From: Gonapodya sp. JEL0774
Taxonomy: Eukaryota
Assembly: GCA_027604505.1 (NCBI GenBank)
Contig: JADIIX010000180.1
Span: forward strand, 1-36,791
Direction of reading: 5' to 3'
DNA length: 36,791 bases
Shown here one piece after another: positions 1,471 through 36,453 of this stretch (positions are counted from its first letter, which is position 1; every line of letters starts with the position of its first letter). A model generated the notes under the pieces. The model saw only the letters and a list, made by a program, of their open reading frames with translations. It searched no databases and was not told the origin of the DNA. A program made the position numbers and the translations under genes.

Positions 1471-1603
1471 CAGAACGGGTTGTTGTGGTGGCGCGAGTGG
1501 GTTCTCTATGCATATTAAGAGTTCGGGCCTTCCCGCGCTTTCCTTGACTTTCCACCCCTTTAGCCACGTCGCATGGTCCAAGAAGTTCTCCACCGCCACC
1601 GAC

Positions 1604-1950
1604 CGTCAAAGAGCTTTCTGTTCAAGATTGCGAGGACGTGATTCCGTCCCACAAACTGTTTGTTCCTCGAAAACGGAATGTAGTAGTGGGGCGGCGAGGA
1701 GCCAGGATTCGCATCAACTCTGGATTGAAAAGCACTGATGACATTCATGATATTGCAGTGGTCACAGGTACAGAAAGTAAGCACGCGGAGCCGTGAATGG
1801 TGGAGCTTACCTCGAGCCTTGGTTGTTAGAGTTGCCGATGTGAACGCGGTCACCTTCAATGTGCTGGGAGTGTATTATTATGTTGGTGACGTTCCTCGTC
1901 GGTGCAAGAGAATTTGGAAAGGTTTGTTGTCCATCATGGGTGGTCAGCAT
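1604..1950 (-). pseudogene. Truncated paralog (copy 1) of the amyloid-motif NLR: exon 1 1950-1811, intron 1810-1735, exon 2 broken off near 1604
   Basis: Colinear with 11080-11414. The spliced product is MLTTHDGQQTFPNSLAPTRNVTNIIIHSQHIEGDRVHIGNSNNQGSSAFQSRVDANPGSSPPHYYIPFSRNKQFVGRNHVLAILNRKLFD. Homology stops before Walker A. Confidence 0.85.
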
Positions 1951-2444
1951 GGGACGGATGGTTGGGACTGGGAGGGGGTTGGGTGGTGCCAGAGCGGGAA
2001 GACAAGGATTTGTTGGGGAATTCAAAAGGCGCACGGTCCACACAAGAGCAGAATGGCCGAACCAACAAGGATCAATTGGTTGCTGTCGTTTGGAGTCCTT
2101 GCAATAGGTCACGCGACTGAACCTGCCTGAGGGTGTCAGGTGCCACAGCAACTTTGACCACCGCAAGTACAACGGAGCAAACTGGACAGAACAACTTCAG
2201 TCGCCAGAGGATTATTATCACCCTCCTTTTTCACCTCCCAAACACTCATGGCAGAGGTTTTCGGGATCGTCTCGAGCGCTGTCAGTATCGCCGCCACCTT
2301 CAGCACCTGTCACGAATGCTTCAACTACGTCCAAATCGATCGCCGCTTCGGCGAGGACATCCAAAAGGAAACGCTGAACTTCGCGTTGGGGTGAGGGTGT
2401 CCACATCTACGACAAAGGCGGTCCAAATACCAGCACCTGCTCCG
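1604..2444. repeat. Direct duplication of the NLR 5' end / intergenic / het-S 5' end block (partner 11080-11982)
   Basis: Clear colinear nucleotide similarity, e.g. CACGGTCCACACAAGAGCAGAATGGCCGAACCAACAAGGATCAAT in both copies. Confidence 0.9.
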
Positions 2445-3121
2445 AAGGCGCCGATGAAGTGGCCCTTGCAGAGAGCACGCTTTATCAGATCCTCGTGCCA
2501 ATGGCGGTCTCTGAGAAAGTGTAGCACAAGTACAAGTATGAAGCCGTCCCCGTCGAGGACAAGTGTTCGGATGCGAAACCAAATGATTGAGCTTGCAACG
2601 CGTCGTCAGAACAATGCCCCTCTGCGAACGTTAGCTTCATGGGCACTGTACGACATGGGCACTTTAGCAAGCTGGTGGAAGGCGCAATAACGTTGCTCGA
2701 CAATCTTGGGCATGTATTTCCCGCACCGCCGGACCACGTGACAAGGCTCGTGATCGAGGACGCCAAGGCTGTGGACGAGTTTTGCCACTGACGCCATTGC
2801 TGGGGTACCAGGTGGGCAATCTCAGGATCCTCAAGTGGCACAGATACTGAGGCTGGTGCAAGATCTGGCTGAGAAGGTGGACGAGCCTCTTAACAAAGAG
2901 TTCGGTAGCGGGGCGGCAAGGAAGGGGGTGCATATAGAGAATACAGAGGTTGTGGACAATGCAAAGATGCGCTTATGCATATTTTTGGTAGAGACTGGCA
3001 AGGTCAGGCTGTACTACCGCAAGGTAAGTCCAGTATAGACATTGGAAAATAACGGGCTGGGGGCAATGCGAAGGCTCACGTCGGAGAGAGTTTTGCTGAT
3101 GAGGACACCTTCTGGAATTGG
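2248..3121 (+). pseudogene. het-S: het-S/het-s homolog (HeLo domain plus two-repeat prion-forming domain), full-length but with several frameshifts and stops
   Basis: Reading across frameshifts: MAEVFGIVSSAVSIAATFSTCHECFNYVQIDRRFGEDIQ...SRWGEGVHIYD...ELATRRQNNAPLRTLASWALYD...SKLVEGAITLLDNLGHVFP...GVHIENTEVVDNAKMRL...SIDIGK*RAGGNAKAHVGESFADEDTFWN. This is colinear with Podospora HET-s as recalled (MSEPFGIVAGAL...LSRWGEAV...RRQK...AWALYD...R1...R2...GFWDN). Lesions: 23-nt deletion near 2379 relative to copy 2, TAG 2522-2524, frameshifts near 2565, 2660, 2780 and 2976, TAA 3050-3052. Confidence 0.88.
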
Positions 3122-7412: not shown

Positions 7413-10400
7413 TCACACCTCAATTGTGCGTCGAGTATTGGAAAGTGCCTTGAATGCTCTTTTACCAGCGTTATCTATGGAGTTCCCTGGAGGAGTGAGA
7501 GGAGAGAGAAGAGAATAGACCATGTGTGTGTGTGTGTATGACTCAGCGACTCTGAGCGAGAGGTCACACTCTGATACTCACCACTGACATTGAGCAACGT
7601 CAAGGTGGAGTTGCTCTTGAGGGCCTCAGCAAGCGCTCTGGCGCCAGCGTCGCCGATCTCGTTGGCTGGACGATGGCGAGAGGAGAGAGGAGAGAAGAGA
7701 CCATGTGTGGGTGTGTGAGTGACTCAGCGACTCTGAGCGAAAGGGAGGCCACACTCTGATACTCACATTCGACATCGAGCAACGTCAAGGTGGAGTTGGT
7801 CTTGAGGACCTCAGAAAGCGCTCTGGCGCCAGCATCACCGATCGAGTTGTCTGGAGTCGAGAGAGGAGAGAGAGACGAAGGATAGGAGAGAGGAGAGAGG
7901 AGACCGTGAGGGTGTGTGTGACTCTGCGAGTCTAAGTGAGAGTGAGCGGGAGGTCACACTCTGATGCTCACAATGAAGGTTAAGTGACGTCACGGTGGAG
8001 TTGGTCTTGAGGGCCTCAGCAAGCGCTCTGGCGCCAGCGTCACCGATGGAGTTGTCTGGAGTCGAGAGAGGAGAGAGGAGACCGTGAGGGTGTGTGTGAC
8101 TCTGCGAGTCTGAGTGAGAGGGAGCGGGAGGTCACACTCTGATACTCACAATGAAGGTTAAGTGACGTCACGGTGGAGTTGGTCTTGAGGACCTCAGCAA
8201 GCGCTCTGGCGCCAGCCTCACCGATCGAATTGGCTGGAGTCGAGAGAGGAGAGAGGAGACGGAGTGTGTGTTCATGTGTGTGACTGAGACTCAGCAACTC
8301 TTGAGCGAGAGGGAGCAGGAAATCACACTCTGATACTCACCACCGACATTGAGCGACGTCAAGGTGAAGTTGGTCTTGAGGGCCTCAGCAAGCGCTCTGG
8401 CGCCAGCCTCACCGAGCGAGTTCCCTGGAGTCAAGAGTGCAGAGAGAGGAGAGAGGAGACGGAGTGTGTGTTCATGTGTGTGACTGAGACTCAGCAACTC
8501 TGAAGTAAGAGCGAGAGGGAGGTCACACTCTGATACTCACTAGTAAGGTTGAGCGACGTCAAGGTGGAGTTGGTCTTGAGGGCCGCAGCAAGCGCTCTGC
8601 CGCCAGCATCACCGATCGAGTTCCCTGGAGTCAAGAGTGCAGAGAGAGGAGAGAGGAGACGGAGTGGGTGTTCATGTGTGTGTGGGGGTGACTCAGCGAC
8701 TCTGAAGCAAGAGCGAGAGGGAGCAGGAAATCACACTCTGAGATTCACTTTCGACATGGAGCGACGTCAAGGTGGAGTTGGTCTTGAGGGCCTCAGCAAG
8801 TGCTCTGCCGCCAGTCTCACCGATCGAGTTCACTGGAGTCAAGGGAGGAGAGAGAAGAGAGGAGACGGTAGGGGTGTTTGTGTGTGTGTGTGTGACTCAG
8901 TGACTCTGGAGCAAGAGCGAGCTCGAGGTCAAACTCTAATACTCACTATAAAGGTTGAGCGACGTCAAAGTGGAGTTGGTCTTGAGGGCCTCAGCAAGCG
9001 CTCTGCCGCCTGCCTCACCGATCGAGTTCCCTGTGGGTTCGGGTCGGCCGGGGTGGTGGTAAAATCATACGATCCAAGACACTTTAACATCACTATGCAT
9101 AACTCGCCATTAGCCTTGCTGGACTCACCCGTCAACGTTAGGGTCCGGACGGCACTATTGTTTTTGAGCGCGTGGGCGATCGCCCTTGCTCCAGCATCTC
9201 CAATTGACTTCCCTTTGGTGGAGGGACGACAGTTGGAGGAGGGGGAACAGGTAAGAAGGGAGTAGAGCGTCCATGTTTCGCGACTACTTGGTGAGAGTTG
9301 AAACCCGCAAATTGAGACACAACTCACACGACAGATCAGGCTTGGTTTCGTTGTTGGCTATGTCCTGCAGCACCTTGGTTAAAGCCCCTGCCCCGGTTCT
9401 TTCTGTGTTTCCGAAATCTTTAGCTAGTAGGTTCGCGATTGTGAAGGCTTCGCGTTAGTACCAAGTGATTTGGGTGGTGTATGCCAACTCACCCCATCTC
9501 CATGTCCCCAGGTCTTTCTCCGATAAAATTCTGGCAGGATCGTTTTTCGGCAGCGTCTTTACCCGGATATGGTGGACACTTTCCAGCAGGGTTTGTGCTA
9601 GTTTTTGCTGCCCTTGGGAATAGTACGCTCTTGCGAGTGCGTGCTGGGCCGCCAGCAGATCCGGATGGTCTTTTGATAGGACTCCTTTCCGAGCAGCAAC
9701 AACAAGCTCCAGCGTGTTCACTGCCTTGTCTACTTGTCCGGTATACTCGTATGCGAGGGCGAGCTCTTGCTGCGCCTCTAGCAGAGGAATGTCCTCTTGG
9801 GTAGAGGTTGGATGTAGAAGACGTCTGAATGTTCTATCCAGTTGGGCAAGCCAACCTCTCGCCAGTTGTTGTCTTCCAAAGACACATGCTTGAAGCCATA
9901 GAGCTGCTTCTGCGAATCTTCCGTCGGAGTTCAAGCACCGCCCAACCTGAAGACAGAGGTCGTATCTCGGTTCCAGCTCCATTCCTTCGCCACTTCCCAG
10001 TACCTTCACGGCGTGCGGGAGGTACTCCCTCCATCGCTCTCGATTGTCCCACTCGTTGGTTGGAAATATTGAGCTGATGTGTGTGATTGCCTCTTCCATC
10101 TTTTTCGACGCAAAGCGCTGGGTGCACAGCCAGTCCCATGCCGCCAGGTGCACAAGACGGTGGAGATCATACACTTCATCCTCTCTGTTGGTTTCCTCTG
10201 AGCGACGTGACACAAATGCGTACCCGATGAGGGTATTGATCGCTCCTTCCATTTTCACGGCACTCCCGGCGGTGGGCAGGATGGTTCGAGGGATGGACTT
10301 CCATTCAATACACGCCATGAAGGCCAAGATGTTTGCCGAGAGAGGATTTTCTTGATTGATCTGCTTGAACGAGACCACCCACGTTTTGGCCACTGCATTT

Positions 10401-11414
10401 TGGGATTCCTCGTAATGTGTTCGGTCACGGAAGTCTTCGCTTAGCAGTTCCATCTTATTTTCTTCCAGCAGTTCCCGATACCTTTTGATTGTAATTGCAT
10501 TAATATTCAGGTACGCTGCTGCTTGGGCGATTGCAAGCGGAAGGTTTGTGAGTTCCTTGAGGAGTTTCGCAGTGTTCAACTGATCCTCGAGCAATACTTT
10601 TCGTGTGAGGGACTTCTTAAACAACTCTGCCGCCTCCTGTCCACTCATCGCTTGCATATTGATGGTATCAACACCTGCGAGGTCCACTCCGACCTTCTGA
10701 GGGCGGGTTGTGAACAGTGTGAGTCCTTGTTCGCTCTGTGGAAGGTAGTAATCAATACCTCGTCCCTGCTTGGGGTGAAACACTACTTCTGCATCGTCGG
10801 CATTGTCTACGATCAAGAGCCACCGTCCGGCTGCGTCCTCGCTCAAATATCGCTTGACAACCTCCTTTATGTCTTCTGTTGCCCCTGTCGTAAGAGAGAT
10901 GCCAACTTTAATAGCCACCTCCTTGCACGCCTGCTCAAAGCTCTCCATGCTGAGTGCAGGAAACCAGAAGATTGAGTAGTCTTGATGTGTCCCCTTCACT
11001 CTGTACGCAAACTCGAGTGCAACTTGTGTCTTTCCCACTCCACCGAGTCCCACAAGAGCTGCCCTCTGACAATCCTCATCGTCAAAAAGTTTTCTGTTCA
11101 AGGTCGCGAGGACGTGATCCCGCCCCACAAACTGTTTGTTCCTTGAAAAGGGAATGTAGTAGTGGGGACGGGAGGAGCCGGGATTCGCATCAACTCTTGA
11201 TTGGGAAGCACTGATGACATTCATGATATTGCAGCGGTCACAGGTACGGAAAGGAAGCATGCGGACCCTTGAATGGTGGAGCTTACCTCGAGCCTTGGTT
11301 GTAAGAATTGCCGATCTGAGCGCGGCCACCTTCAATATGCTGGGAGTGTATTGTTATGTTGGTGACGTTACTCGTCGGTGCAAGCGAATTTGGAAAGGTT
11401 GTATCTCCCAGCAT
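7413..11414 (-). CDS. NLR/STAND protein: N-terminal HET-s-like amyloid motif - NB-ARC - TPR - RI-type LRR array; 13 exons: 11414-11287, 11210-9493, 9423-9328, 9212-9129, 9030-8947, 8832-8749, 8624-8541, 8424-8341, 8233-8150, 8055-7972, 7850-7767, 7665-7582, 7486-7413 (923 aa)
   Basis: Walker A GLGGVGKT, Walker B WLLIVDNAD, NLPLA, LHRLV, and kinesin-light-chain-like TPRs (LAAQHALARAYYSQGQ). All 12 introns are GT-AG and keep the frame; the exons sum to 2772 nt = 924 codons with no internal stop. Intron 9492-9424 has a GTGAGT donor, a perfect TACTAAC branch point (9460-9454) and a TAG acceptor. Confidence 0.85.
7582..9212 (-). repeat. Tandem exon-intron array: nine 84-nt phase-1 exons, each one 28-aa LRR (consensus xNSIGxAGARALAEALKTNSTLTxLxLx)
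   Basis: Each exon measures exactly 84 nt between an AG acceptor and a GTGAGT/GTGAGC/GTGAAT donor. Introns are 94-124 nt, mostly similar to each other, with CT- and CA-rich tracts on the minus strand. Confidence 0.93.
11301..11360 (-). other. Putative R0 amyloid signalling motif of the NLR (NITIHSQHIEGGRAQIGNSY)
   Basis: Alternating hydrophobic pattern and terminal [RK]-x-[QH]-[IV]-G-[NE] match the PFD repeats of the neighbouring het-S homolog. The motif is conserved in copy 1 (1884-1825, NIIIHSQHIEGDRVHIGNSN). Confidence 0.7.
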
Positions 11415-11708: not shown

Positions 11709-11982
11709 GTGGCAGAGGTTTTCGGGATCGTCTGTGGCGCTGTCAGTATCGCCGCTACCTTCAGCACCTGTCACAAATGCTTCAACTACGTCCAAGTCGG
11801 TCGCGGTTTCGACAAGGACATCCAAACGGAGACGCTCAACCTCGCATTGCTCAGTCGCGGTTTCGACAAGGACATCCAAACGGAGACGCTCAACCTCGCA
11901 TTGCTCAAGCTTCGCCTTTCGCGTTGGGGTGAGGCTGTCCACATTTACGACAAAGGCGGTTCAAATTTCAGTACGGGCTCCG
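11709..11982 (+). pseudogene. het-S: het-S homolog copy 2: HeLo N-terminal stub, start codon ATG->GTG, internal 54-bp tandem duplication, truncated
   Basis: (V)AEVFGIVCGAVSIAATFSTCHKCFNYVQVGRGFDKDIQTETLNLALL-SRGFDKDIQTETLNLALL-KLRLSRWGEAVHIYDK. Homology to copy 1 ends near 11982. Confidence 0.88.
11800..11907 (+). repeat. Perfect 54-bp tandem duplication (11800-11853, 11854-11907)
   Basis: GTCGCGGTTTCGACAAGGACATCCAAACGGAGACGCTCAACCTCGCATTGCTCA twice. Confidence 0.95.
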
Positions 11983-12355
11983 CAAAGCTGTTGGAGAGAC
12001 TGAACTTTTGATGCTATGTTTCGGCTCACGAAAGGGGTCAGCTGAGAGGAAAGACGTGCACGTAGTGAACGATTCACATATGGAAAGCGGAAGAGCCCAC
12101 GTCAACACTGCGTACATAAGAGGAAAGAAGATAAAGCAGAATGTGGAGCTGTTGGACATTAAACAACCACCGAGATTGGCTCACAAGAGCCCAAAGTGCA
12201 CGCACGAATGATACTGAGATCTCTGCGAGATACAGACTGGCCACCAAGGTTCGTAAACTACAATTACTATCCGAGATCAAGCACCCGATCGGTACGAAAA
12301 CACCATCCCGCCCCTCCTGGACTTCTCCTCCATCGGGTGAATTTTGTGTGCGAAG

Positions 12356-15300
12356 GCGTCGGGACCTCATTGGAGCGGAGGGAGTTGTGCGGAGACACTA
12401 TGCGATCGGGGTCGGTAGGATGTGGGAAGTAAGAGTAAACGGGCGAGTGGGATGAACGAATGGGGGACTTGGGACGCGCACTACTCCTTGTAAGATCCTC
12501 ACTTTATCCTTCTTGCTTGACATCTTCTCCTTCCTCCATTTTGTCGTCGAAGGGAGTGAGAAAGTTGCTGTGCATTGTCACAGAGGTGAACAGACAATGC
12601 AGACGTCGGTTTTTGGTAGGGGGTAGGGGCCGCAGGGGAAGCGGGGAGCAGGTGCAGACGGACTTTACTTCTTGTTCCACGTATACCATGCTACGTCTGC
12701 TCTCTCCCATTGCACTGCATTTTCCATCTCATGTTTCCTTCCCACCTCCCCACTTCTCCACTCAGACCATTGCCGTGCGTCCCGGAATCACTGATTACCT
12801 CCCAGAAACCCCTGATAAGCCGTATCATTATTCTGTGTAACTAGCCCAAGTATCCTACCAGATGTATCTGCCCTGGAGTCTGCCGGGAGGAGGATAGATG
12901 GGATGCAAAGTGCGGAATTGAAAACGGTGCGGGGTGGTGGGTATTTCACATATAAAGGCGTTGGATCTTCAAGATCACTTGGCAGTCGGCTGTTCTGAAC
13001 GTATTTCTCCACCGCTTCTTGCCCTTCAACATTCCACCCTCAATATTACCTGCTGAAGCCTACAACACACCCCTGTCAGTGAATAAACTGGGACTGGGGT
13101 CCCTGGTACTTACTTATCCTTCTCGGCATCCAGTCCCGGATGACTAGTGCAGCCTCCACCATTCCTACGACTGACCTGCTCACATTGTTGCCAATAAATT
13201 CGGCACCTGCGGCTGCATGACGCCAGTCCTCAATGATCCAACCACCTTACCGCTGGACTTCGGGTACCCCCACCTGCACACTAAATTCATGATACATTAC
13301 TGATTGATTATGCTGTGGGAAGGAGGGCGACGTTGGTGCCCATGAACAGAAGAGATAAGTTTCAATGACTGCCGAAATTGAAAGAATGAAGAATCGCGGA
13401 TATTGGATGAATCAAGAACGGCTTTAAATAAGCGAGGATGAAGAGAGTGTGAACAGAGTGTGCGAAAGACGGAAAGGGAGGTCCTGAACTTCTTCATTAC
13501 ACAAGAGCGAAATCCCTAAACGGCAATCATGTATTGTTTGCCTTTCATCTCCTGATTTATTCCCTGATTTCACTGAAGACAGCAAAGAAGAAGGCCACCC
13601 CTTGTGACCATGATCCAGTGACAGTCACTCCACTTGGCCACACTGATGGCAGTCAGTCCAGATGAACTCGACCAGCAAGAAAAACATATAAATGTACGAA
13701 CCAGAATAGATAGGAATAGATATCCAGATACATTCACCACCCTCGCGTTCCAATGGTGATCCTCTGATTGAGCAACCAGCATGCCTTACGCATCCACCAT
13801 CGGAGGCCACCAGCGTACACTAATAAAATTAATGTATCACCAGGGCATTGACCGACTATATGAAGCAGAGTCCTGCTAGCCTCATCAAGTGGATACTTGT
13901 CAGCTGCTGGCCATCGTTGGGTGTCAGCTGAGGGCACATCACCCTATCCCGGATGACGTGCTCTCAAACGACATTGCCCACTCTTCAAGCAACCGAAAGC
14001 TATCGAAACTCATCCCTCTTGTGAATGAGTGTTCGAACACCGGAAAGCTCAACTCCGCCCCATACCAAAGGATAGGGTGATATGCTCTCAAAGGACAAAA
14101 CCCCATCACAAAAGATGGTGTGATATGTTCTGAAGTGACAATGCCCACTCTTCAAGCAAGGCAACGCATGCTGTTGGGACTCATCAGTCCCGCTGGCTGA
14201 GCGCCTGTGCCCCCCCACGCCGACGCAGCCGTAATAACGGAAGTGGCCTGACTATCAACCGGACTCGGGTCTCTCTTGATGGCGAAACTTGTTGGCGAGA
14301 CTTGTCCCCGACCAGTCACCACAGCTCAGTGAGAATCCAGATGGTGATGTAGCGGTACGGACGAGGTGTGGTGTTGCCCGTTGGAGAGGGGTCGTGGGAG
14401 CGAGGGAGGAAGGGCGAGAAGAGAGAACTGGTGGGGGTCGGCTCGCGCGGACGTGATGTGGGATGTGCTTCGGTGGGGGAACATATCACTGGACGATGAA
14501 TGACACGACGACGTGCCCAAACGGCTGCGGGGAACTCACCAGCCGCCCCATCCTCCACCTCCTCCAGCTTGACGTCATCCCGTCCAGAAGATCAAGCCCT
14601 CCACCCTCCTTGTTCGATTCAGACTCGGCCACGAACCCCAAGAGCGAAGAGTCCAGCGAAGGGAATGGAAGAACGGTGAGCGCACCTGATACGGGGAACG
14701 GTGTTGGTCGGTGGAGCGGATGTTCGACATAGTCCCTGTCAGGATAAGTAAGTGTAGAATCTAAAAACATATCGGAGCAAAGAAAGCAACGCGGGAAAAT
14801 GAGTACTTCCAAAATCAGGTGTCAGCACAACAAGAACAGTCGCACGTACCATCGTCCTACGACTCCCTCCTTGTCCCTGACCACACCATGACGGAGTACC
14901 CACATGCCCATTCCCCGTTCCGCTGGCTTTGCTCTCATCCACCCCATCCTGCTCCATCATGTTCACACTCCCGTTACTCCCTGCTCCCCTGTTCGTGCTC
15001 TGCTTCCTCCCCGTCAACTTCGCAAACGTCCACTGAAGGAAGTTCCGTTTCGGGGGAGTACAATGCCCGGGATTGGAGGTGGAGGCGGCTGTGGGTGGCA
15101 CAGTTGTCGCCGATTGTGATGCTGCTCCAGCTCCCGACACCCCGGACAATTCCAACTCAGTCCGTCCAGTGTCCACACCGGCATCACCCTCCACACTTCT
15201 CTCCCCATCGCTCAACCTCGGACTCGGACGCGTCTTAGCCTCCGCAGTCTCCCCCGCTCACTCCATCTCACCCACTGGCCTTCTGCCGCTTGACCCCGCT

Positions 15301-17443
15301 CTCGTTCCACCCAGCCCCGAACCCCATCACCATCGTCAACGACATGGAACTGAAAGTGGACACTCCGAGCCCCAGCGTCCCGTACTCGCACGGACCATGA
15401 TGTTCCACTTGGTATGGTTCTGCAGGGACGTGGTCCGTCTCGGCATCGTGGCCGTGTCTTGGGGACCATCGCTGTTGCTCTGGGGGTGGTCGGCGCACTG
15501 GATGTGGACGTGCGCGATGGAGACGGCTACGGTTGTTTCAAATGCCCCGAAGCGCGGTCGGCGGTACGGGATCGGGGAGGGCAGTCTGACACCCCGCAGC
15601 CCGTGACCACTTGTGGGAGTAGGCGCTGACGCCACGGAGGCGTGCGACTCCTTGAACCGGCAGGGTTCGAGCTTGTTGAGGAGGGACTCGAGGATGGTGG
15701 TGCGAGCGGCGGTCGGGGTTTGTGCCGGACTGGGCGGCGTGGGTGTCTCCAGGCGTCAGTGTCAGTGTGAGATCGTCCACCCTGGCCAACTCCGCTTTAT
15801 CGTCGTCATCGTCCGTCGTGGTGGACTCCGACTTCGTGTCACTGCTCGCCACGTTGGCCATCTGCACCAACACCACCTGTACCAAACTGCTGAGCTGGTG
15901 CTGTGGTGCCGCTCCCCCACCTCCAACACCCGACACCGTCGACGCAGACACAATCGACACAGGCTTTCTGATCACGTTCCCGCCGCCGCCACTGTCGCAA
16001 TGGTGACCATTGGGGCCGCTAGGGGGAACCTCGCTCCTGTGATCGTGTCTGTGTACGACGCACCCGACGGCGACGAGCCTGGCACACGCGATCGTGTCTG
16101 TGTACGACACACCCGACTACGACGAGCTTGTCGACATGGTCGAGAACGATGGACGACGACGAGCTTGTGCACACGGCCGAGGACGCTGAGGCCGTGGTGG
16201 CGAGCGAGGTGAGCGAGTGGGACGAGAGGAGGGAGGCGGAGGGGAAGCGGGTCCAGGTGTTGGAAGCGGGTCCTGGTGGTGGAAGCGGGTCGAGGTGGTG
16301 GCTTGGGTCAGGGACGCCGGGTCTGCATCATTTGAGGATGAGGAATCGGTTGGGTAAGTCGTACACATCCACCACCAACCTGACGCAGCCCACCAACTTA
16401 CGCGTGGTCGTCCAACTCCCTGCCTCATCCCCCCAATTTCGTGCCCATCCTTCCCCCTCCCCCCTCCGCAGGGGATGCGGCGGGTCAGGTGGTGACGGTG
16501 ATGAGTATGAACGGGACGTCGAAGGAGGAGGTGGTGGCGGTTAGGAAGGAGACGACGGATGTGGTGGGCCGAGGTTGGGGGAGGTGGGAGGTGGTCGGTG
16601 TACTTGGCGGCACGAAGTACGGAAGCGCCGAAGCGCCGCCGACATGTTGGACGCCAGGAACCCGGGTCATTCCGATCCACAGGATGAGATGAGCTGGTCC
16701 CTGTCCCTATCCACCACAACCGCGGCGCCTGCCGGGGTGGACAACGACTTTCCTTGTTTTAGCAACCTCAGTTCCATCATGGCCATGCTCTAAAGGTTCG
16801 GACAACGATGGGAGGAGTACACGAGTGCTTTGGGTGGGGACAGCAGTACGCGGTGTTTGGGGTGTGGAGTGCGAGGTGGCTCGAGGACAGTGGTGTGGAT
16901 TCCGAGTGAGTGCACCAGGACAGGCAGGCGAGCGGGCAGCTGACATGTTGTATATTGAGCCATGACTGGCACCTGACATGTTGGATATTGAGCGATGAGC
17001 GGAGTCGGCCAAAAGTGGTGGTGGCTTTGGTAGCGGTGAGGGACGGAGGATTGGACGAGTGGGAACAGCTGCCCTTTCCGGACGAGTCGTGCCAGCGGTG
17101 GCGGGTGTGGGAGTGGGATGCAATGGGTGCGCCGGTTGGGTCGGTTTTGGGTCGGGGTTGATGATGCAACCCAATGAGGCGGGATCGGAAGTATGGTTGG
17201 AACAAGGCCACAGAGTGCAGAGTGCAGGAAGTCCAAACTCACGGAGCGATTCACGAGTGCGAGTTGCATGTACCAGAAGATGCCCGAGTCAAATACGAAC
17301 AGGCGTCTGCAGAGGAATAAGGGAGCGTTCGCACATGAAGCACCTCGGCATGTCCACATGCCAGCAAATGCTTACCAACAATCATAAGCCCCACGGAGTG
17401 AAGCGGCAACCGCCTCTACAGTCAGTCATTGGCGCACGCTTCA
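12356..17443. repeat. ~5-kb segmental duplication, copy A
   Basis: Starts GCGTCGGGACCTCATTGGAGCGGAGGG and ends CTACAGTCAGTCATT-GCGCACGCTTCA, as in 28631-33808. The first ~2 kb are nearly identical and the distal part is more diverged. Confidence 0.92.
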
Positions 17444-19503: not shown

Positions 19504-22408
19504 ATGTCGGACGGGCGTGCCGGAGGTGATCCCTGAACACAGTGTTTCTCCGGATCACACTTGTCAACTTACCATCCACACCCCTCTACAACTCCAGATG
19601 GCTCCAAGGCAAGACGCCTGCGTTCCGACGAGTATACCGTTGGGTGGATATGCGCTCTGCCGACGGAGCTCGCGGCTGCCCGGGCAATGTTTGATGAGGA
19701 ATACCAACCACTCGACCGGGACATGAGGGACCCGAACATCTACTCTTTCGGACGGATGGGGGTTCACAATGTTGTCGTCGCTTGTCTTCCGGCCGGAAAT
19801 CGCGGGACAAACTCTGCCGCAGCGGTTGCGAACAACCTCGGCCGGACTTTCGATTCCCTCCAGTTCGGCCTCATGGTGGGCATCGGAGGCGGCGTTCCCA
19901 GCCCAGAAGCAGACATTCGTCTGGGAGACGTAGTTGTCAGTCAGCCCTTTGAAACCTACGGCGGCGTGGTGCAATACGACTTCGGGGAACACACTTGGGA
20001 GGGGTTCCGGCGAACGGGATATCTCAACAGTCCGCCGCGTTTGCTTCTCAATGCCGTTAGCCAACTTCAAGCCAATCATCTTGCTGGAGATATCCGCCTC
20101 GCGGAACACCTTGAGAAGCTTAGACGGCTTCCAGTCTTCCATCGCGAGAGTGCCGGTCCAGACATCTTATTCCATCCCACATACAATCACAAACGAGGGC
20201 TTTGGTGCGAATCGTGTAGAGTCGATATGCAGCTCCCTCGTCCCGCTCGATCTCATGTAGAGCCCGTGGTTCACTACGGTTTGATTGCATCCGGAAACCA
20301 GGACATGAAGGATGGGGTGCAGCGGGACAGGGTCAGCAAAGAGCTCGGAGGAGTCCTGTGTTTTGAAATGGAAGCGGCAGGACTTATGAATCATTTCCCA
20401 TGCCTCATCATCCGTGGTATCTCCGACTATGCGGACTCACACAAAAACACCAGGTGGCAAGGGTATTCAGCAGGCACAGCTGCAGCATGTGCCAAGGAAC
20501 TCCTGTTGATGATACCAAGGACTGATCCGGGAACACGAGGTACGCGCCTCTATTTTGCTGTCGTGCCTCGCACTGTATCATCCTTATCTGTTGTAACTAA
20601 ACTGATCACATCCTCACGGTCATTGATTCAACAGCCTACATCCCTTTTCCACGGAATCCCCGTTTTGTGGGCCGCACATCACAGCTCCAACAGCTGGCAC
20701 AGAAGCTGCTGCACAACGAGGAATGCCGGCAGATGGCGCTCGTCGGTCTCGGCGGAGTCGGGAAGACTCAAGTCGCTCTGGAGTTTGCTTACCAAGTGAA
20801 GCAAGAGCATGCCGAGAGAGGGCGCTCTGTGTTTTGGTTGCCCGCAGTCAGCATGGAAAGTTTCGAACAAGCATGCAGGGAAATTGCAAGAACACTGGGC
20901 ATACCTTCGGAAAAGGATGATGACATCAAGGTAGTGGTCAAGCAGCATCTGAGTACGAAGAAAGCCGGTGTCTGGCTCATCATCCTCGACAACGCAGACG
21001 ACATCGGGCTTCTGACTGGTTCCAAGGGATCTTGGGGTATTTTACACTACCTTCCGCAGAGCGAGGATGGGCTCTCTGTGTATACAACCCGCACTCGAGA
21101 TGTTCCCTTGTCACTTGGAGTGGCCAATGTTATTGATGTGGACGCCATGGACAAACAGGAAGCAAAAGAACTACTTCAAATGTCCCTCATGCGCAAGGAG
21201 CTGCTCAACGACGATGCAAGCGTGGACAAATTCCTGGACGAACTTACATATCTTCCATTGGCACTCTCTCAGGCAGCAGCATATCTCAACAAAATCGAGA
21301 AAATCTCTATTGCAGATTATCTCGGCATGCTGCAAAGCACACAGGTGGCCGACGTGCTGAGCAGGGAATTCGTCAACATCCAGCGTTACTCAGGATCGAG
21401 CAATGCTGTGGCAACAACGTGGCTGGTTTCATTCAACCAGATCCGCACAAACGATCTTCTAGCAGGGGATCTTCTGGCATTTATGTCGTGTATCGAGTCT
21501 AAGGCGATCCCTCGAGCTATCTTGCCTGCGTTGGAGTCAAGATTCAAAATGGAAGATGCTATTGGCACCCTTACTGACTACGCCTTTGTGTCGCCTCGGA
21601 AGGACCAGGACATGTACGACCTCCACCGGTTGGTGCATCTTGCGGCTGGAGACTGGCTCCGCATACAGGGCCTCACGGCAGAAAAGACAAGAGAAGCAAT
21701 CCAGCATATCGCGACAATTTTTCACACAGACAATTGGGACCAGAGGAATGTGTGGAGGGCGTACATCCCGCACGCCGTGAAAGTGCTGGGGAGCAGCGAA
21801 GGCAAGGAATTGGCGGAACGATACGAGCTTTGCCTGTGGATCGGGCGATGCTTGCAGACGGATGGCAGAGTGCCAGAAGCCGTGATGTGGCTCCAGAAAT
21901 GCGACATCGGAAGACGGGACGAGTTGAAACTGGCCAAGTACCACCCGGACCGTCTCACCTCGCAACTCAACCTCGCTTACGCATAGCAGGCAAACGGGCA
22001 GGTGGGCAAGGCCGTCACGCTACTGGAGCACGTCGTCGCCGTCCGTGAGCGAGTTTTGGCCGAGGACCACCCGGACCGTCCCGCCTCCCAGAACAACCTC
22101 GCTTCCGCGTACCAGGCCAATGGGCAGGTGGGCAAGGCCGTCACGCTGCTGGAGCACGTCGTCGAGTCCATGAGCAGGTTTTGGCTGAGGACCACCCGTC
22201 CCGTCTCACCTCGCAGGCCAGCCTCGCATACGTCAAACAGGCCATGGCGGGGGCGGCTCTCTCGGCAGAAGCGGGTGCGGTCAATGGTGGTGAGGATGCA
22301 CGGCATGGGAGTGTGAGGTCCACAGTGGGTGGTAGTGGAAGCCAAGTGGCGTCGGCGCCCACTTGGTGGCGGACCATCACCACATCGGAAGAAGAGCAAG
22401 AGGAGTGA
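19504..22408 (+). pseudogene. PNP_UDP (purine/uridine phosphorylase-like) - NB-ARC - TPR NLR; exons 19504-19525, 19598-20539, 20635-22408; nonsense codon at 21984-21986 and 1-nt deletion near 22165 in the TPR tail
   Basis: PNP_UDP motifs YTVGWICALPTE, LMVGIGGGVP, GDVVVS, CFEMEAAGL, IRGISDYADSHKN. Intron 20540-20634 restores AYIPFPRNPRFVGR. GLGGVGKT, WLIILDNAD, YLPLA, LHRLV follow. The first exon is less certain (GTGATC donor). It may still express a C-terminally truncated protein. Confidence 0.88.
21942..22235 (+). repeat. 126-bp (42-aa) TPR tandem repeats with high internal identity
   Basis: CACCCG (HP) anchors at 21942, 22068 and 22193 (spacing 126, then 125). QANGQVGKAVTLLEHVV occurs twice. 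Confidence 0.85.
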
Positions 22409-22892: not shown

Positions 22893-23998
22893 CTATCCTG
22901 TCATCCTGCTTATCCTAGTTCTTGCGGTATGGCACACCACACCGGACGAAAACGTCGTATCCTGCCGTCCTCGCTCACCTTGGCCTGTGCACTCACTCGC
23001 CCCCAGCACAGGTCCTGTAAAATCTGACGAGTTCCAGTCCACCAAAAACGCAACGGCGGACGATACCTCGGAGACCGTTGTGATGGCGTGGAGTGCTCGG
23101 CACCGCGGAAACGTCGGCTTTTCGGCTCTCAGTTGCTGATATTCTCGCTCGTCCCGCTCTCCACGGATCTCCACTGTCACTACAACCCGAGATCGAATGT
23201 CGCTCGCAGGATAGCTACGATACGATGTACCAGTCTGATCCACAGCACTCCAGATTTTTCCATACCGCGCAATCAGCCCTGTACGGCGACCAGCACATTG
23301 AAGATGAGACTAGCTGTCCTTGGCTCTCTTTCCAATCGTAACATTCTGCATCTCTGCCCGAAGCGCGGTGAAGAAAATATGCAAAGTGTTCTCGTAGCCA
23401 TGTGGAAAAAGCGGTCCAAAAGAGCTCTCTGGTTGAGTGACCGCGATTTAAACGTCTTGTCTGCTGCCCGAAGACGCTCCTCTACACCGAAGAAGACGCA
23501 AGCGTCACGAGCGAGACAATCCAGCCTGTAAGATGCGATCGCAGTCATGCATCCCGTGTTTCCATCCTCGTCCAAAGTAGCCATTGCTCCCCTCTTGCCC
23601 ATTTTCATTGCCGGTGACGCGTCTGACGCGTCGTGGTCCCCACACGCGAGGGTGAGAGCTCGTTCCAATCCATCGCGGTCCTTCTTGCCGAGACCAGGTG
23701 GCCGTCCCCCGCTCTTGATGTTTTGAAAGAACGTTTGGTGCAAACCGTGACCGCGCTGTTTCAGGTCGCGACGAATCGACGAATGATTTCGAGCTACAGA
23801 GCAGGCAGCAGCCCGTTTGTCCTGAGGGAAACGAGGTGGTGAAATCAGTATTGGTGCTGGAGCAACGCTGAAACGTGTATAAATGCTCACTTGCGTGTCA
23901 ATTGAGATACTCTGGCCCTTTGATTCATCCTTGGACTTCCGGAGGTAGGCAACGAAGACGGGAAGACCGGGTAGGGGAGCTGTGGATGATGATGCCAT
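22893..23998 (-). pseudogene. Serine recombinase (resolvase-type catalytic domain) with a spliceosomal intron (23890-23822); frameshift near 23450, stop at 23312-23310
   Basis: VAYLRKS..Q.ISIDTQ (YxRxS nucleophile motif), KSGG...RDGLERAL, YRLDCLARD (LDRLxR with R->C). After the frameshift comes LHIFFTALRAEMQNVTIGKRAKDS*SHLQCAGRRTGLIARYG, resembling helix E and the G..G...YG linker. The intron is GTGAGC...ACTGAT...CCTCAG, phase 0. Confidence 0.75.
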
Positions 23999-24697
23999 CC
24001 GAGTTGAAAGCTGAGTACGCGACAGGAAGGATTGAAACCAAAAATACGAAGTCCATCACTGATGCAGGTGTGCCGGCGAAGTGGGACAACTTATTCGTGT
24101 GCAATTGACAGGTTCCCGATTGCCATGGTAAAAATAACAGACGCTACCTGCGGGAGAGGAAACAGCTCTTTCCCTAGGGGCTAGGGTGACAGCAGAAACC
24201 TGGCGCGGGACGCGATGAGATTGACAGGGTCAAGCATTGTTGGTCTGAGCGCGAGGGAAACGGTAGCGGGGCGCGCGGTTTCAGGTGCGATAGAAAAGAC
24301 GATGGACGGTCGTAGGAGTAAAGCGGAGACGAGAAGTTCGCGAGAAGATGGTGCGTTTTGTCAATATGATGTTGTTCGACGTTGATCCGCTGGGTGTACG
24401 TACATCCGTGGTTATTGTGTTCTGCTACTCGCCGAGTTGATCGTACATGTGTTTCATGTCGCATCCAGGGCTTGTAATACTTGTACGTCTACGCCGCCGC
24501 CCTCACCGCGAGTGATACGTTATGAAGTTCTCGTGTATCTTCCTCAGTGTTCCCTGAGGGAATTGGACTACAACAGTCCGTAAACTGTAACGACTTTCAA
24601 ATGTTATCACATGACACGCACACATCTGAAATAATGCACTGGCAATTTGAGAACCTGAATAAACTTATCACGAGCAAATCCTCCCTTTTTGGGACCC

Positions 24698-26012
24698 ATG
24701 TTGAAGGGGCTCATGGGCGCACTGACTTCTTTCGAGCATCCCAAACCCGTGAACCCGTTCCCATCGATATCCGAGATACCCCCTCCATCCATGGAGGATA
24801 CCATCATTGTGGACTCGGACTCTGAGATATCGCTGGAGGTTCGTTCGCCCATCTGCGCGTTCGGTTCAATCCCTGAATTCTGTTTATGTATCCACTCTGT
24901 CCCCTCTCACAATCACATGTGTTATTGCGAGAATAGTGGTACGAAAAGCAATGTTCCCCGATAATAGACTATACTGAACTCAGCTCCAGGCCAAGTTACA
25001 TTCAGCTCGAACTACCGACATGCAAGGAACGTTTGCGGGAGTTCGTCGCCCGTCGTGATAATGGAAAGAGGCGTCACCGTCGTACTTCCAGGAGCGCACC
25101 TCGATGTGTCAGTATCAACACCAGATCGTTTTTTCTGGGGTGCTCATCCGTTAGGCTTGGGTGTCCCTTCTATAGGTCAACGCCTTTCTGCTCTACCGTC
25201 GTGCCCTTGATGTGGATACCAGGTACTATGGAATCGACGAGATTCCCTTTGCTCAGAAGTCTCGAATGCTAGCGACATGGTGGAAAAACGAGACCAAAGA
25301 GGTGAAGCAGGTTTTTAGAAACCTCTATAAAGAAGCGAAGAAGTTATCGTGCGTATTTTGTTTTTTGACTGCATTGGTGTGTCATTTCCCTGCCCTTCAA
25401 CCTCTCACTTAACAGTGCCAGAATTACGGAAGGCGTGTCCTCAATTGCTAAAGACTCCCTCGAGATGCAAATTAAGGAAGAGGATGAAGATGGAAACCGC
25501 TTTTCAGAGTGAGCCTCAGAGATTCCGTACCACTCTATCTCTCTGACGTGCATAATGTCTCAGATATCATGATGTCGGAATTGACGTATCACCTCAGGAT
25601 GCTTTTGATTCAACTGAAAAGGAAGAAAAGGAGAAGAAAGAAGAGTGCAAGTTAGTATTGAGACGCCTTAACAGCACAGTGGGATCTGAGTTCGACGTGG
25701 TTTTCAGCTCCAGATGCGATGACTTCCACTTCGACAATTCATCTTATGATATCTTGCAACCTGAAATAAAATACGAGGACTACATGTGAGTATCTAATTC
25801 TTGCTATCTAGGTGAATTCTCACACACTTCGCAGTCCCGAAAGTGTCACCCAAGATGACTCAGTAGCTCCGGTTTCCAATGATGACCCAAACTTTAAACC
25901 AATATCTAACGCCTGCATAGGCATGTTACATGTGGAAGAAGTTCTTCCTCCCACCCTCCAAATGGAATTGGAAGGCAATCCATTTGAGATCTCATCAAAC
26001 CTGATTTCGTGA
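24698..26012 (+). CDS. MATA/SOX-TCF-type HMG-box transcription factor; exons 24698-24838, 24937-25107, 25176-25348, 25416-25508, 25564-25785, 25835-26012 (5' end uncertain)
   Basis: The spliced HMG box reads APRCVNAFLLYRRALD...IPFAQKSRMLATWWKNETKEVKQVFRNLYKEAKK. All five introns are GT-AG and frame-preserving. A basic stretch (KRRHRR) precedes the box and the C-terminus is acidic. Confidence 0.75.
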
Positions 26013-26108
26013 TCCATTCGCGACGTGTTTGAACCCGATGTTAAACATATTGTTTACGTTGAGTGGATTTGTTTTGCTGACTTTATGATTTACAAAGAGA
26101 ACAATTTA

Positions 26109-27161: not shown

Positions 27162-28630
27162 TAGCGTGACGGGCCCGGGAACAAATCTCTCTCTCTCTCC
27201 CCCACCCCCTTTCTCGCGCTTGAACAACATCGCGTCCCTTGCGCTTTCGAGAATACTGTGATTATTGTTTTCCAGCCTTTTGCTTTGCCTCAGAGCGTCA
27301 CTGTACTAGTTGCCAGCAAAATCGTAGCAATAGAGATAAACTCGCAGTCACTGTGATCGCCATCTGACAGCCTTTGCGAGGATTGGTGCAGGCCTCTCGT
27401 CGTCCTCTGAATCGTCATTCATCCTCTCTCTCGTCGTCCTTGTAACGATCTGTTTACTCGCTTTCACTGTCGACTGTGTCGACTCTGGAAGAGTCAGAGG
27501 AAGGACATACGGAAGACGAAGATGACGATGACACCAACCAAGACAGCAAAGGAAGTAGCCGGGAGTCTCTTTCTGGTGCCGCTAGCGGTTGGCGATCCAG
27601 ACCTTGCTAGGGGCCTTTGCTGCCACAGATGTCACTGCTTGCTTCTGTGCTCCACCGGCAGCCACTTGCCACGGTAGGCGTTAACTCTCTCTCTCGCTTC
27701 TTTCCCCTTCAACCACCTCCGATAAGCCTGTTCAGCACAGCCGGGAACCCACCTTCGATCTGCGTCAGAGCGGGCGACGTGAGTGATTTTGCAGGCGCGT
27801 TTGATGCCGTGGATTGCGCAGGCGAGCTCGGCGCGGTGATGGTTGCTGTGGAGATGGAGGTTGGAGAACTTGCGAGGCGGGGTCGGGGGAGGCCCACAGA
27901 TGGCGTGATCATGGATCCAACTGGTTGAGAAATCTCACGCAGCCACAAGATCTTTCCCTCACGTCATTCCACCAAACTCACTTGTCTCCCACCCAACACT
28001 CCCATCCCACTCGCCCTCGATCCCCGTCCACCACCCCGCATCCGCCCACCTCGCGTTCCACCTCCACTGGTCCCCGATCCTTCCAGCCTGGATCACCTGA
28101 TTCGCTGGTAGGGACATCCGTCTGGCCACAGTCGCCGACCAGGGCGGGCTTGCGCCGGAGATGAGGACTTTTGAGCTCCTGAGTGCGTTTGCAGGATGTA
28201 ACGCTGGAGACTAGGGGAGATGTTGAGAATGCTCCTGGGATAGTAGCTTGGGGTGATTGGGGTGGTTTGTACGGCGATGAATGTGGTGACAGAGGTGGGA
28301 GAAGCCCCGTTTGGCCTGAGCGAGGAGAAGTGAGCGCTCGAGGGAACCAAACCCTATCTGTGCACACACCGTAATCTAAATTCCCCCCGAATTCTCGGAA
28401 ATGGCGGGAACTCCTGTAACCCTCCTACCCTCCCCCTCCCCCTCCCCCTCCGTCTCCGTCTCCGTCTCCCTCTCCACCAGCGCCTTCCCCTCAGCAACCA
28501 CCTCCACCCACTTTGCTCACCACTCCCAACACCTCCCCTTCCCATATCCCCAGCCCCTCCTCCATCCGTTCCTCTCCCACTCAGCGAACACCCGATCCGC
28601 CGTGACGCCCAACTCGGCGAGTGAAGGAAT

Positions 28631-33808: not shown

Positions 33809-34498
33809 GTTCGTGGATGGAAAGAGGGCAGGAGTCAAGTGATGGAATGGAGAGACAAATGGGAGAAGGGGGGGGGAGAGGGACGGGTGTGGTCTCCCCT
33901 CTGCTGTGGCCAACTGTCCCGTCCCTCTCTCTCTCACCCTCCTTAAAGATTCCCTATTGAAGGCCCTACACCCTTACTGCGTACCGCATCGTCGTCTGGG
34001 CGACGAGCGACGAGAATGTCTTAACAGAACATTGCAATGCTCAATTATTTGTGCGCGCCAGGATTTGCAGGACTGCAGGATAAGTCCTTTTATAGCAGTC
34101 CAACAACGCTCTCCATCACTCACATCTATAACAATGCCACCCCCTCATAATTATGTTCATGGTGTAGGTTACGTTACATCGCTAACTCTGGCCATTTCAA
34201 AGATGATGGAGATCTCCCAGGTGAGCAGGCAACACCAACAGTTCCATAGAAGATGCTGGTTGATAAGTGAAGATCACGTGATGAAAAACTGCGCTACTAA
34301 CTACACAATATCACTTGAGCCCTCCCTAACAATCCCAACGCATCCTGTTATCCTATTATCCTGTCACCCTTTACCTTTGGTTCTCCTGTGCCTTCGCAAC
34401 ACAAGCCTCCACACAAACACCAAACTGAAATCAAAACAAACCCCAAACGAAGCGCCCTACAAAAGACAAAAACTATGAGCTTCGACCTTTTTCACATT

Positions 34499-35149
34499 TC
34501 AATTGTTCGTCGAGCATTTGCTCTTAAGTGCCTTGAACGCGATTCTCCCAGCGTCACCGATCGAGTTCCCTAGAGTCAAAGTAGAGGAGAGAGTGGAGAG
34601 GAGAGAGGAACCGGTGGGTGAGTGTGTATGCGACTTTTGTCTCTGAGAGGGAGGTCACACGCTGATACTCACAACTGACATCGAGCGACATCAAGGAGGA
34701 GTTGGTCTTGAGGGCCTCAGCAAGCGCTCTGGCGCCAGCCTCACCGATACAGTTGCCTGGAGTTGAAGTAGAGGAGAGAGGAGACGGAGTGTGTGTTCAT
34801 GTGTGTGTGACTCAGCGACTCTGAGCAAGAGCGAGCTCGAGGTCACACTCTGATACTCACTATAAAGGTTGAGCGACGTCAAGGTAGAGTTGGTCTTGAG
34901 GACCTCAGCAAACGCTGTCGCGCCAGCCTCACCGATCGAATTGTCTGTAGTAGTAAAGGAGAGCAGAAGAGGGACGAGAGAGGAGAGAGGAGACCGTGGT
35001 TACGGGGTGTGTGTGAGAGACTCTGCGCCTCTGGAGCGAGAGTGAGCCAGAAATCAAACTCTGATACTCACTATAAAGGTTGAGCGACGTCAAGGTGGAG
35101 TTGGTCTTGAGGGCCTCAGCAAGCGCTCTGGCGGCATCGTCACTGATCG
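34499..35149 (-). pseudogene. Orphan 3' fragment of a paralogous LRR array: partial exon 35149-35072, 84-nt exons 34944-34861 and 34756-34673, terminal exon 34569-34499
   Basis: Same LRR consensus (NSIGEAGATAFAEVLKTNSTLTSLNLY; NCIGEAGARALAEALKTNSSLMSLDVS) and the same splice sites and 3' flank as 7413-9212. The most upstream exon lacks its acceptor, and no NB-ARC lies upstream within the window. Confidence 0.85.
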
Positions 35150-36453
35150 TGATTCAAAGTGTCCTGGGATGTTCATTAGGTTTTGCCTGAGGTGAGATGT
35201 CTCCGATCATTCCAGGTACAGAATGCAATACGCATTATCATCTACGCTGGATGTGATGCATGAGTTGCTTGCAAGATGTTGATTATTTCCTCCTGACAAA
35301 GTCGATTTGTTGTGTGAGAACTGAGATGGGTCCGTTCCGGTATTCCAGGATCCGTGACGAAATTGTGTTCTCTGACAAGGCACTGCAATTAGTGATTAAG
35401 CATGCCGAGTTCATTGGAGCTGAATATTGAGGTAGGATGGTGGGCTGGTCCCTGTCCCTCTTCGATGAATGGGATCACTGGATCCCCATATCCTTTCTAT
35501 CTGCCATTGAGGAAGGATTCCAATGGTCGCCAGTGTCCATCTCCAGGGAAGAACACGAGAATGTTGGGAGGTGGAATAGATTCAGACTCTGGGTTTCCAT
35601 GTTGGACAAATCACGCAGTAGCTGATCATTGTCCATTCCTCGACACAATATTAACTCTCCGTCTTCTCCCTTTTACACTTCCCTCCCTGTCCATGTCTGA
35701 TTCCAGATACAGTCTTGTGCTGTAGTCCCAGAGGGGGTGAGATGGGAAATATGGCAGTGCCGTTATGGTAGGATGATCCATCTGCTTGTTACGCCAAACA
35801 GCTAGCGGGCAGGGTTCGACTCTTGGACTACATCTTGTCGTTGTAAGCGCAGAGAGAGAGTCTGAGACTCTTAATCTGTAGAAACAATCGATGCGCGGAC
35901 GTCAAGAGATTGGTAGAATCAAAAAGCTTATAAGAATAGATATAGACTCTTAATTTTCTTCTCTATTTTCCTCGCCTTCGCATAGAATGTTCCATGAACG
36001 TAAATCGGCAAATCCATTCTACCGAATGTTCAACAAGGTCGGTCGAGTGCACTGACACTTGTATTCATCACGTTCGAGATTGGCATTCCGAGAATGTAGC
36101 GAACCCTGACCTCCTGACCTTTTCAATAGAAATCGAGACGGACTCGAAGTGGGAGACTGGGGCGAGAATGGCAGTTTCTCCCAGAAAGATGGTGAATCCG
36201 GGCAACTAATGGTTGGACACCACATCAGTGTCTTACCTGCCCTCCGGTCCCTCGTGATTGGCAACCGAATGTCGTAAAACATGGTATTATGTTTCCGACG
36301 GTAGGATGTTGACTGAACGCGGTACGGAAGGCTCGGGACATATTTGGTAGTGTACCCTACACGGTTTTCGGGTAAAGACCCCCGACGATATTGTCTCAGA
36401 TGACCTCGAAAGGGAGGTCACTAAGAGGAAAGGGGGTTCTCCGGCCGATGGTC

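Follow-up and report, generated by a model that had tools for sequence, protein, structure and literature searches.

The gene described here lies on the minus strand, at 11414-7413, of a 36,791-nt stretch of DNA from Gonapodya sp. JEL0774, an aquatic fungus of an early-diverging lineage (assembly GCA_027604505.1, contig JADIIX010000180.1; the whole stretch is called the window below). Its predicted product is a fungal NOD-like receptor (NLR; NOD stands for nucleotide-binding oligomerization domain) in which an amyloid-like motif, an NB-ARC domain, two tetratricopeptide repeats (TPRs), a linker, nine leucine-rich repeats (LRRs), each encoded by an 84-nt exon, and the product of a terminal exon follow one another. 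We consider it probable that the gene belongs to a small Gonapodya family with the order amyloid motif, NB-ARC, short TPR block and LRRs, in which the LRRs have replaced most of the TPR sensor. We are largely confident that the fusion of NB-ARC and LRRs is real. That the LRRs are the sensor of an amyloid-signalling NLR seems probable to nearly the same degree as the family assignment, and current activity of the window copy is perhaps a toss-up.

Results

Gene model

Joined, the 13 exons (Table 1) give 2772 nt, coding for 923 aa and a stop codon, with zero internal stops. An earlier note on this DNA had proposed that a phase-1 intron at 9492-9424 leads the NB-ARC/TPR open reading frame past its apparent stop into a linker, nine 84-nt LRR exons and a terminal exon to give a stop-free 923-aa product, and this model was reproduced; its single gene across the apparent stop also holds as a prediction, since paralog models cross the same junction. 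The length that it gave for the unspliced open frame, 626 aa, has to be corrected to 628 aa, or 623 aa via the second acceptor of intron 1. The apparent stop, a TAA at 9457-9455, sits within the TACTAAC branch-point motif of intron 2. This motif occurs four times over both strands of the window (0.002 expected per 45-nt span), and intron 2 is the sole case on either strand of a GTRAGT...ACTAAC pair within 120 nt. Every one of introns 2-12 is in phase 1. As the four AGs nearest the donor of intron 2 (9448, 9424, 9418 and 9403) are all in frame, like 6 of the 10 listed, the exact acceptor is uncertain, the reading frame not. Deviating splice signals in the gene comprise one GTGAAT donor, one GTGAGC donor and an AAG acceptor at intron 3. 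Beyond the stop, the linker, LRR exons one and two and the open sequence ahead of them are all free of in-frame ATGs, so that the LRR array lacks a start of its own, and the five AATAAA-like motifs tried are absent between 9455 and 9033.

In the long open reading frame, Pfam reports NB-ARC at 39.8 bits (cut-off 23.5), TPR_12 at 38.6 (30.1) and TPR_10 at 37.8 (27.5). The Walker A, Walker B, sensor 1, GLPL-like and MHD-like motifs of the NB-ARC were all found in exon 2, and the ratio of nonsynonymous to synonymous differences per site (pN/pS) is 0.14 for 44 codons of its 5' part, compared with a second NLR copy in the window. Of the domains for which the earlier note had suggested a Pfam check, LRR_6 stays below its cut-off in the window, with weak matches to 8 of the nine 84-nt exons (E 0.004-0.47; the Pfam model straddles the intron); it passes in the paralog models P0002 and P0004 (43.2 and 79.5 bits).

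Paralogs in Gonapodya

A search with exon 2 gave 1792 matches among 7997 candidates, the best 120 of which were examined. Four further models from Gonapodya sp. JEL0774, each on another contig, extend past the end of P0001, the public model of the window locus. P0002 continues with the window linker (31 of 32 residues identical) and three LRRs, and P0004 with a diverged linker, five LRRs and the same terminal repeat as in the window; the partial model P0003 has a diverged linker, and P0093 a single LRR-like repeat (E 1e-5) after the NB-ARC part. A profile of the window repeats recognized three of the best 120 exon-2 relatives at E < 1e-4, all from Gonapodya. The NB-ARC/linker junction, used as a query on proteins of 381-1213 aa only, had 7 matches among 181 candidates, three of them the Gonapodya paralogs and four matching the LRR half only. 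The search for related NB-ARC+TPR+LRR_6 proteins proposed in the earlier note was thus answered by the Gonapodya paralogs, with the junction in no other of the 181 candidates. The five NB-ARCs form a single clade (support 100/99), known from this one isolate, and the genus is placed under Monoblepharidomycetes (PMC12258605, Table S7).

Two observations concern exchange and drift among these copies. Along exon 2, the nearest of P0002, P0003 and P0004 switches from one stretch of the protein to the next, and a deletion before the TPRs is common only with P0002; this mosaic pattern suggests recombination between NLR copies. In P0003, the last 12 nt of intron 2 (window 9436-9424, minus strand) are read in frame as residues of the model, which suggests that the acceptor has shifted among paralogs with the frame kept.

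P0004 served as a stand-in for the spliced window product in Pfam and folding. Its single-sequence fold has a predicted local distance difference test score (pLDDT) of 43, with the LRR part alone usable, and a fold with 80 NB-ARC/TPR rows reaches 70.8, with the first LRRs distorted. With Foldseek, the P0004 models matched NOD2 best, and further matches were Apaf-1, NRC2 and a STAND-TPR protein; for the repeat part of the single-sequence model, the match was the NLRP1 LRR domain (5y3s, TMt 0.79). Structure prediction, another check that had been suggested, thus confirms the domain types on the stand-in; the models are partial, and domain packing is beyond their reach. As leads only, the ESM Atlas returned for P0004 NB-ARC-TPR clusters (Ascomycota, Basidiomycota, bacteria); once the TPR families were set aside, none of the clusters listed had an LRR family.

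The repeats

Two TPRs are found in the window protein and in three paralogs, and none that scores in P0093; all 115 other relatives have 4-11 (median 7). The TPRs retained in four of the five family members score 31-39 bits apiece, and the block is identical at 47-54 of 60 positions among close paralogs, its variability not above that of the rest of the protein.

The LRR part is built of tandem exon+intron units of about 200 bp. Across eight homogeneous units, six residues each occur at codon 27 and at codon 0, the latter split by the intron; these codons encode the two residues preceding the conserved Asn, and no other column shows more than three. In ribonuclease inhibitor (RI)-like LRRs, the positions before this Asn point to the concave binding surface. 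The two codons have pN of 0.71 and 0.81, versus a pS of 0.18 and an intron distance of 0.13, and at their first and second bases at least three alleles occur at 4 of 4 sites versus 11 of the 106 sites that are near-neutral (p 0.007, corrected x28, for repeats that are related, not independent, and sites chosen post hoc). The framework has a pN of 0.084, below its pS of 0.135. Given two TPRs instead of 4-11, and variation concentrated in the LRRs, the LRR array likely replaced the TPRs as the sensor, as far as the sequences can tell; the dual TPR+LRR sensor of the earlier note fits these data less well.

Amyloid motif and HeLo partner genes

Scored with a profile of 143 C-terminal repeats from 73 HeLo relatives, exon 1 ranks top among the 1660 stop-free 42-mers of the window, and 1 of 3000 shuffles scores as high; the N-terminal amyloid motif named in the earlier note is therefore real as a sequence pattern. 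For exon 1 of the second NLR copy, 0 of 3000 shuffles reach its score, and there is a weak Pfam HET-S match (E 0.028). The pattern of HET-s-related amyloid motifs (HRAMs) has hydrophobic residues at 5, 8, 10, 16 and 18, a basic residue at 15 and Gly at 19 (PMC4518210). Exon 1 agrees at six of these seven positions, with a one-residue gap that occurs in 6 of the 73 HeLo relatives, some of them doubtful; position 8 is Gln.

A HeLo gene stands head-to-head with the NLR. Compared with a second copy, it has GTG in place of ATG, a 54-nt internal duplication and an early stop, and is without the C-terminal prion-forming region. The NLR/HeLo pair is duplicated at 1560-3121 (DNA identity 85% over 796 nt). 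Full-length HeLo relatives align by tblastn along the second HeLo copy to its end, and its two C-terminal repeats are equalled by 9 and 0 of 3000 shuffles. Neither window copy encodes a HeLo protein that is intact and carries both C-terminal repeats. In a second zoosporic fungus, Cladochytrium tenue, a partial model (P0248) on a 2.8-kb contig also has a HeLo domain, at 61% identity to the window fragment.

Origin and relatives

All 29 named non-Gonapodya NB-ARC matches in the best 120 come from genera that we take to be Pezizomycotina, and no named plant protein is among these 120. The window NB-ARC has a median identity of 49% to 21 Pezizomycotina relatives, a figure inflated by a comparison set picked for likeness to the query, and 50% is the value among those relatives. 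A single locus, at 28-30% identity, turned up in prokaryote genomes, which yields no close bacterial donor. LRR and HeLo matches are absent from all 76 metagenome loci belonging to the NB-ARC family, 16 of which have at least 1.5 kb downstream. Horizontal transfer from ascomycetes is plausible on these comparisons, and we lean towards a derivation of the NB-ARC/HeLo cassette from a filamentous ascomycete by this route, with somewhat less assurance than in the family assignment.

A PNP_UDP-NB-ARC-TPR gene in the window is sister to the LRR clade (support 90/87, unstarred). It carries a stop inside its repeats (21984-21986) and a frameshift further on; its PNP domain shows about 60% identity to relatives from metagenomes, where 23 of the 76 loci have one. 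It is likely of the unfused ancestral type. For the LRRs, the best matches are RNI-like proteins of Mortierellaceae (58 of the best 120) and animal NLRC3, the named best ones being without Dikarya. Identity to vertebrate NLRC3 repeats is 43-52%, a likeness among RI-like repeats that, read from sequence, is largely consensus-driven, shows no descent and names no donor. An LRR array remnant in the window is 82% identical to the gene over 1150 nt, with no NB-ARC upstream.

Other features of the window

A large direct duplication (12352-17443 and 28627-33808; 88% identity over 3.3 kb, 80% over 1.3 kb) begins right after the truncated HeLo gene; the open reading frames tried in it have no Pfam match, and it is possibly a mobile element. 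An alpha/beta hydrolase fragment at 1189-1515 on the plus strand (Abhydrolase_1, E 1e-4) adjoins the point at which the 5' NLR copy breaks off. A gene of several exons at 24640-26020 on the plus strand matches the HMG box weakly (E 0.007, below cut-off); on the minus strand are a 260-aa open frame at 23273-24055, probably intron-containing and of no Pfam family, and a short broken stretch at 36457-36756 that by eye looks like an ankyrin start, with no Pfam ankyrin match.

Table 1. Predicted parts of the NLR gene and related features in the window
Feature	Positions	Strand	Remarks
Exon 1	11287..11414	-	aa 1-42; R0-like HET-s-related amyloid motif at 11304-11363; GTAAGC donor
Intron 1	11211..11286	-	76 nt, phase 2; another acceptor, also in frame, at 11196
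Exon 2	9493..11210	-	NB-ARC about 11110-10370, helical region, two TPRs about 9775-9551
Intron 2	9424..9492	-	69 nt, phase 1; GTGAGT donor, TACTAAC at 9460-9454, TAG acceptor
Linker exon	9328..9423	-	96 nt; degenerate first LRR or cap
LRR exons	7582..9212 (9212-9129 ... 7665-7582)	-	nine, 84 nt, phase 1-1, one 28-aa RI-like LRR each
Terminal exon	7413..7486	-	capping repeat and stop; ending matches P0004
Adjacent HeLo gene, broken	11709..12011	+	Pfam HeLo 63.8 bits; head-to-head, 295 nt from NLR start
Second NLR copy, 5' fragment	1560..1950	-	exon 1 with motif, intron 1, start of exon 2
Second HeLo gene	2248..3121	+	full span; frameshifts, stops; two HET-s-like repeats and aromatic tail
PNP_UDP-NB-ARC-TPR gene	19598..22250	+	ordinary fungal type; near-identical 126-nt TPRs; Pfam
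3' LRR array remnant	34495..35150	-	one cut exon, two whole, terminal exon; same 3' flank

Discussion

How does this gene compare with what is known of fungal receptors? As the earlier note has it, fungal NLRs are generally said to lack LRRs, and the surveys do state so, in the sections covered: no fungal protein with NB-ARC or NACHT plus LRR was found in 2010 (PMC2939053), 5616 fungal NLRs were without LRR and chytrids without NLR in 2014 (PMC4986451), and the absence is restated in PMC9815663 and in a 2025 review (PMC12881547). A screen of 122 proteomes that included G. prolifera and allowed for LRRs reports none in the sections covered, and 13 of its 17 supplements do not contain 'LRR', a listing elsewhere there being possible (PMC12258605); the parts covered of PMC13449251 and PMC11291939 describe no fungal NLR with LRR. 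We found no description of an NB-ARC-TPR-LRR family in a literature search that left subscription journals mostly outside. The earlier note had expected automated annotation to split the gene and miss it: P0001 was indeed cut at the TAA, while P0002 and P0004 are already deposited with NB-ARC, TPR and LRR_6 domains. The broken HeLo gene, the paralogs and the ascomycete-like character of the NB-ARC part are additions to that note.

The amyloid-NB-ARC-TPR receptors of Dikarya (Dyrka 2014, PMC4986451), 68 of which are listed for Sordariales (PMC12258605, Table S9), share with the window protein the N-terminal amyloid motif, the NB-ARC and 42-aa TPR_10/12 repeats, at 39-51% identity. In the window, whose host is a monoblepharid, the TPRs are cut to two and followed by about ten RI-like LRRs, which those surveys lacked; the protein thereby departs from the fungal NB-ARC/TPR class, whose sensors are TPR, ANK, WD40 or HEAT repeats only, without LRR. 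The arrangement resembles NWD2/HET-S and the HRAM pairs in the single motif of the NLR and the adjacent HeLo gene, and in the two repeats, G-rich loop and aromatic tail of the HeLo protein (PMC4518210); however, NWD2 combines NACHT with WD40, whereas the window combines NB-ARC with LRRs, a shortened R0 and two broken HeLo genes. Animal NLRC3 and NOD2, the latter the top fold match of P0004, likewise carry a 28-aa RI-like LRR array, but on NACHT with CARD/PYD, as opposed to NB-ARC with a TPR remnant and no death-fold match in Pfam. Plant NRC2 and ZAR1 have NB-ARC and a C-terminal LRR in one chain, as predicted in the window; plant receptors of the nucleotide-binding site (NBS)-LRR type, however, begin with CC, TIR or RPW8, and the window protein with a 42-aa amyloid-type exon, followed by an NB-ARC of the fungal clade and RI-type 28-aa repeats. 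In Ectocarpus receptors, too, each repeat has an exon to itself and exon+intron units stand in tandem, with birth and death and with variable repeat positions; they join LRRs to ROCO and TPRs to NB-ARC, whereas in the window LRR exons stand on NB-ARC (PMC3341825).

A NOD domain with LRRs is not unique in the databases, as the public gene model KI688_007671 of Linnemannia hyalina (P0191) combines NACHT (37.4 bits) with 12 LRR_6. Like the window gene it joins a NOD domain to an RI-like LRR_6 array in an early-diverging fungus; unlike it, P0191 has NACHT, no TPR, and no amyloid motif that we could see. P0191 may have come about by a parallel swap of sensors, or the model may be fused, the latter because it is one of 58 named Mortierellaceae LRR matches. 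Ahead of its LRRs lies a stretch resembling, in decayed form, what leads into the WD40 part of NACHT-WD40 proteins from Mortierellaceae.

What function would such an architecture suggest? The LRR arc would bind a non-self ligand via the two residues before the conserved Asn, and binding would free the NB-ARC domain, with exchange of ADP for ATP and oligomerization. The clustered N-terminal motifs could then nucleate a HET-s-type amyloid, which would turn a HeLo protein into a membrane pore and kill the cell, as NWD2 does to HET-S, while the two TPRs would be scaffold remaining from the ancestor. Since the adjacent HeLo gene is broken, the window NLR would need a partner encoded at another locus of the genome to act on; failing that, it is an orphan. 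In evolutionary terms, the NB-ARC/HeLo cassette would come from a filamentous ascomycete, with the LRR exons added later, once.

Several points weigh against this reading. P0001, identical to the window locus, reads into intron 2 and ends at the TAA after 539 aa; splicing across intron 2 is predicted, and the paralogs are themselves predicted gene models, compared at the protein level. Exon 1 is a prediction too, the public paralog models starting at an in-frame ATG near the 3' end of intron 1, and it has no Pfam match and 0 PDB sequence matches. Besides having Gln at position 8, the R0 motif falls one residue short of the partner repeats. Neither HeLo gene of the window is whole, and the best 150 of 236 matches include no intact one from Gonapodya, although clustering at 50% could hide one. 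One consensus Leu of the linker, kept in P0002, P0003 and P0004, is Pro in the window, which may be decay. Besides the interdependence of the repeats, already noted, the dN/dS pooled across six presumed exposed LRR positions is 1.04, not above 1, and Mortierellaceae LRR proteins vary at the same two columns. As for an ascomycete origin, Gonapodya is not nested in Pezizomycotina in the NB-ARC tree, the 38 other rows standing apart with support of 79 (25 of 34 named proteins and 17 unnamed ones, with loci as outgroups and four long or duplicate rows left out), and the six named of 13 HeLo relatives looked up comprise four Pezizomycotina, one agaric and one chytrid.

These points bear on the rival explanations in different ways. 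The fusion could be real while the window copy, or the whole family, is in decay: an orphan receptor, left amid a graveyard of NLR fragments and lacking any working effector. Of the five NLR-related pieces in the window the fused gene alone is complete, since the 5' copy, the 3' LRR remnant, the PNP_UDP NLR and the two HeLo genes are broken, and the Leu-to-Pro change in the linker fits. Yet 2772 nt and 12 introns are intact with all NB-ARC motifs present, and the low pN/pS in exon 2 and the constrained LRR framework speak against decay too, even if these could predate the loss of the partner; we regard decay as improbable. A dual sensor, with TPRs and LRRs both binding ligand, could draw on the well-scoring TPRs kept in four of five paralogs, but an array shorter than in all 115 relatives, with no scoring TPR in P0093, and not especially variable among paralogs makes this still less likely, and it was rejected as a first choice for its two conserved TPRs and the variable sites in the LRRs.

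That two units exist, a short NB-ARC-TPR protein ending at the TAA with intron 2 retained and LRR exons that are silent or separate, would agree with P0001 and with the open 628-aa product; against it stand an array without a start codon, the absence of all five AATAAA-like motifs tried, a stop lying in a branch-point motif and paralog models that cross the junction, and we give it little credence. A stand-alone LRR gene was rejected. Least credible of all are contigs of an ascomycete contaminant of the assembly, or chimeric joins. The named NB-ARC matches among the best 120, uniformly Pezizomycotina outside Gonapodya, would suit a contaminant, but Dikarya are missing from the named best LRR matches, and the metagenome loci, 16 with room for it, show no LRR match; a single assembly chimera was rejected, as four further contigs carry the same junction (75-85% and 52% identity).

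Accepting the replacement of the TPR sensor by LRRs, what would the family mean? It breaks the generalization that fungal NLRs have no LRRs, which had earlier been taken as a fungal loss of NOD-LRR, and places HET-S-type amyloid signalling in a monoblepharid. Together with the Linnemannia NACHT-LRR model, it indicates that NOD-LRR receptors may have multiple origins in early-diverging fungi, and fungi have likely arrived at the NB-ARC+LRR design independently. With NB-ARC, a TPR stump and LRRs beside an unfused PNP_UDP-NB-ARC-TPR sister, it offers a traceable case of the route from ancestral NBS-TPR to NBS-LRR that has been proposed (PMC9815663), and a natural test case for an LRR sensor driving a fungal NB-ARC plus an amyloid effector. 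Further-reaching, and in our view doubtful, is that we see a recent, independent NBS-LRR birth midway, in which an ascomycete NB-ARC-TPR/HeLo cassette swapped its TPRs for LRR exons and acquired a combinatorial repertoire wired to prion-type death. As the LRR exons are all 84 nt long and in phase 1-1, with one hypervariable codon split by the intron, exon skipping or shuffling could write new surface residues; if so, it would give Gonapodya a combinatorial receptor repertoire linked to prion-type cell death.

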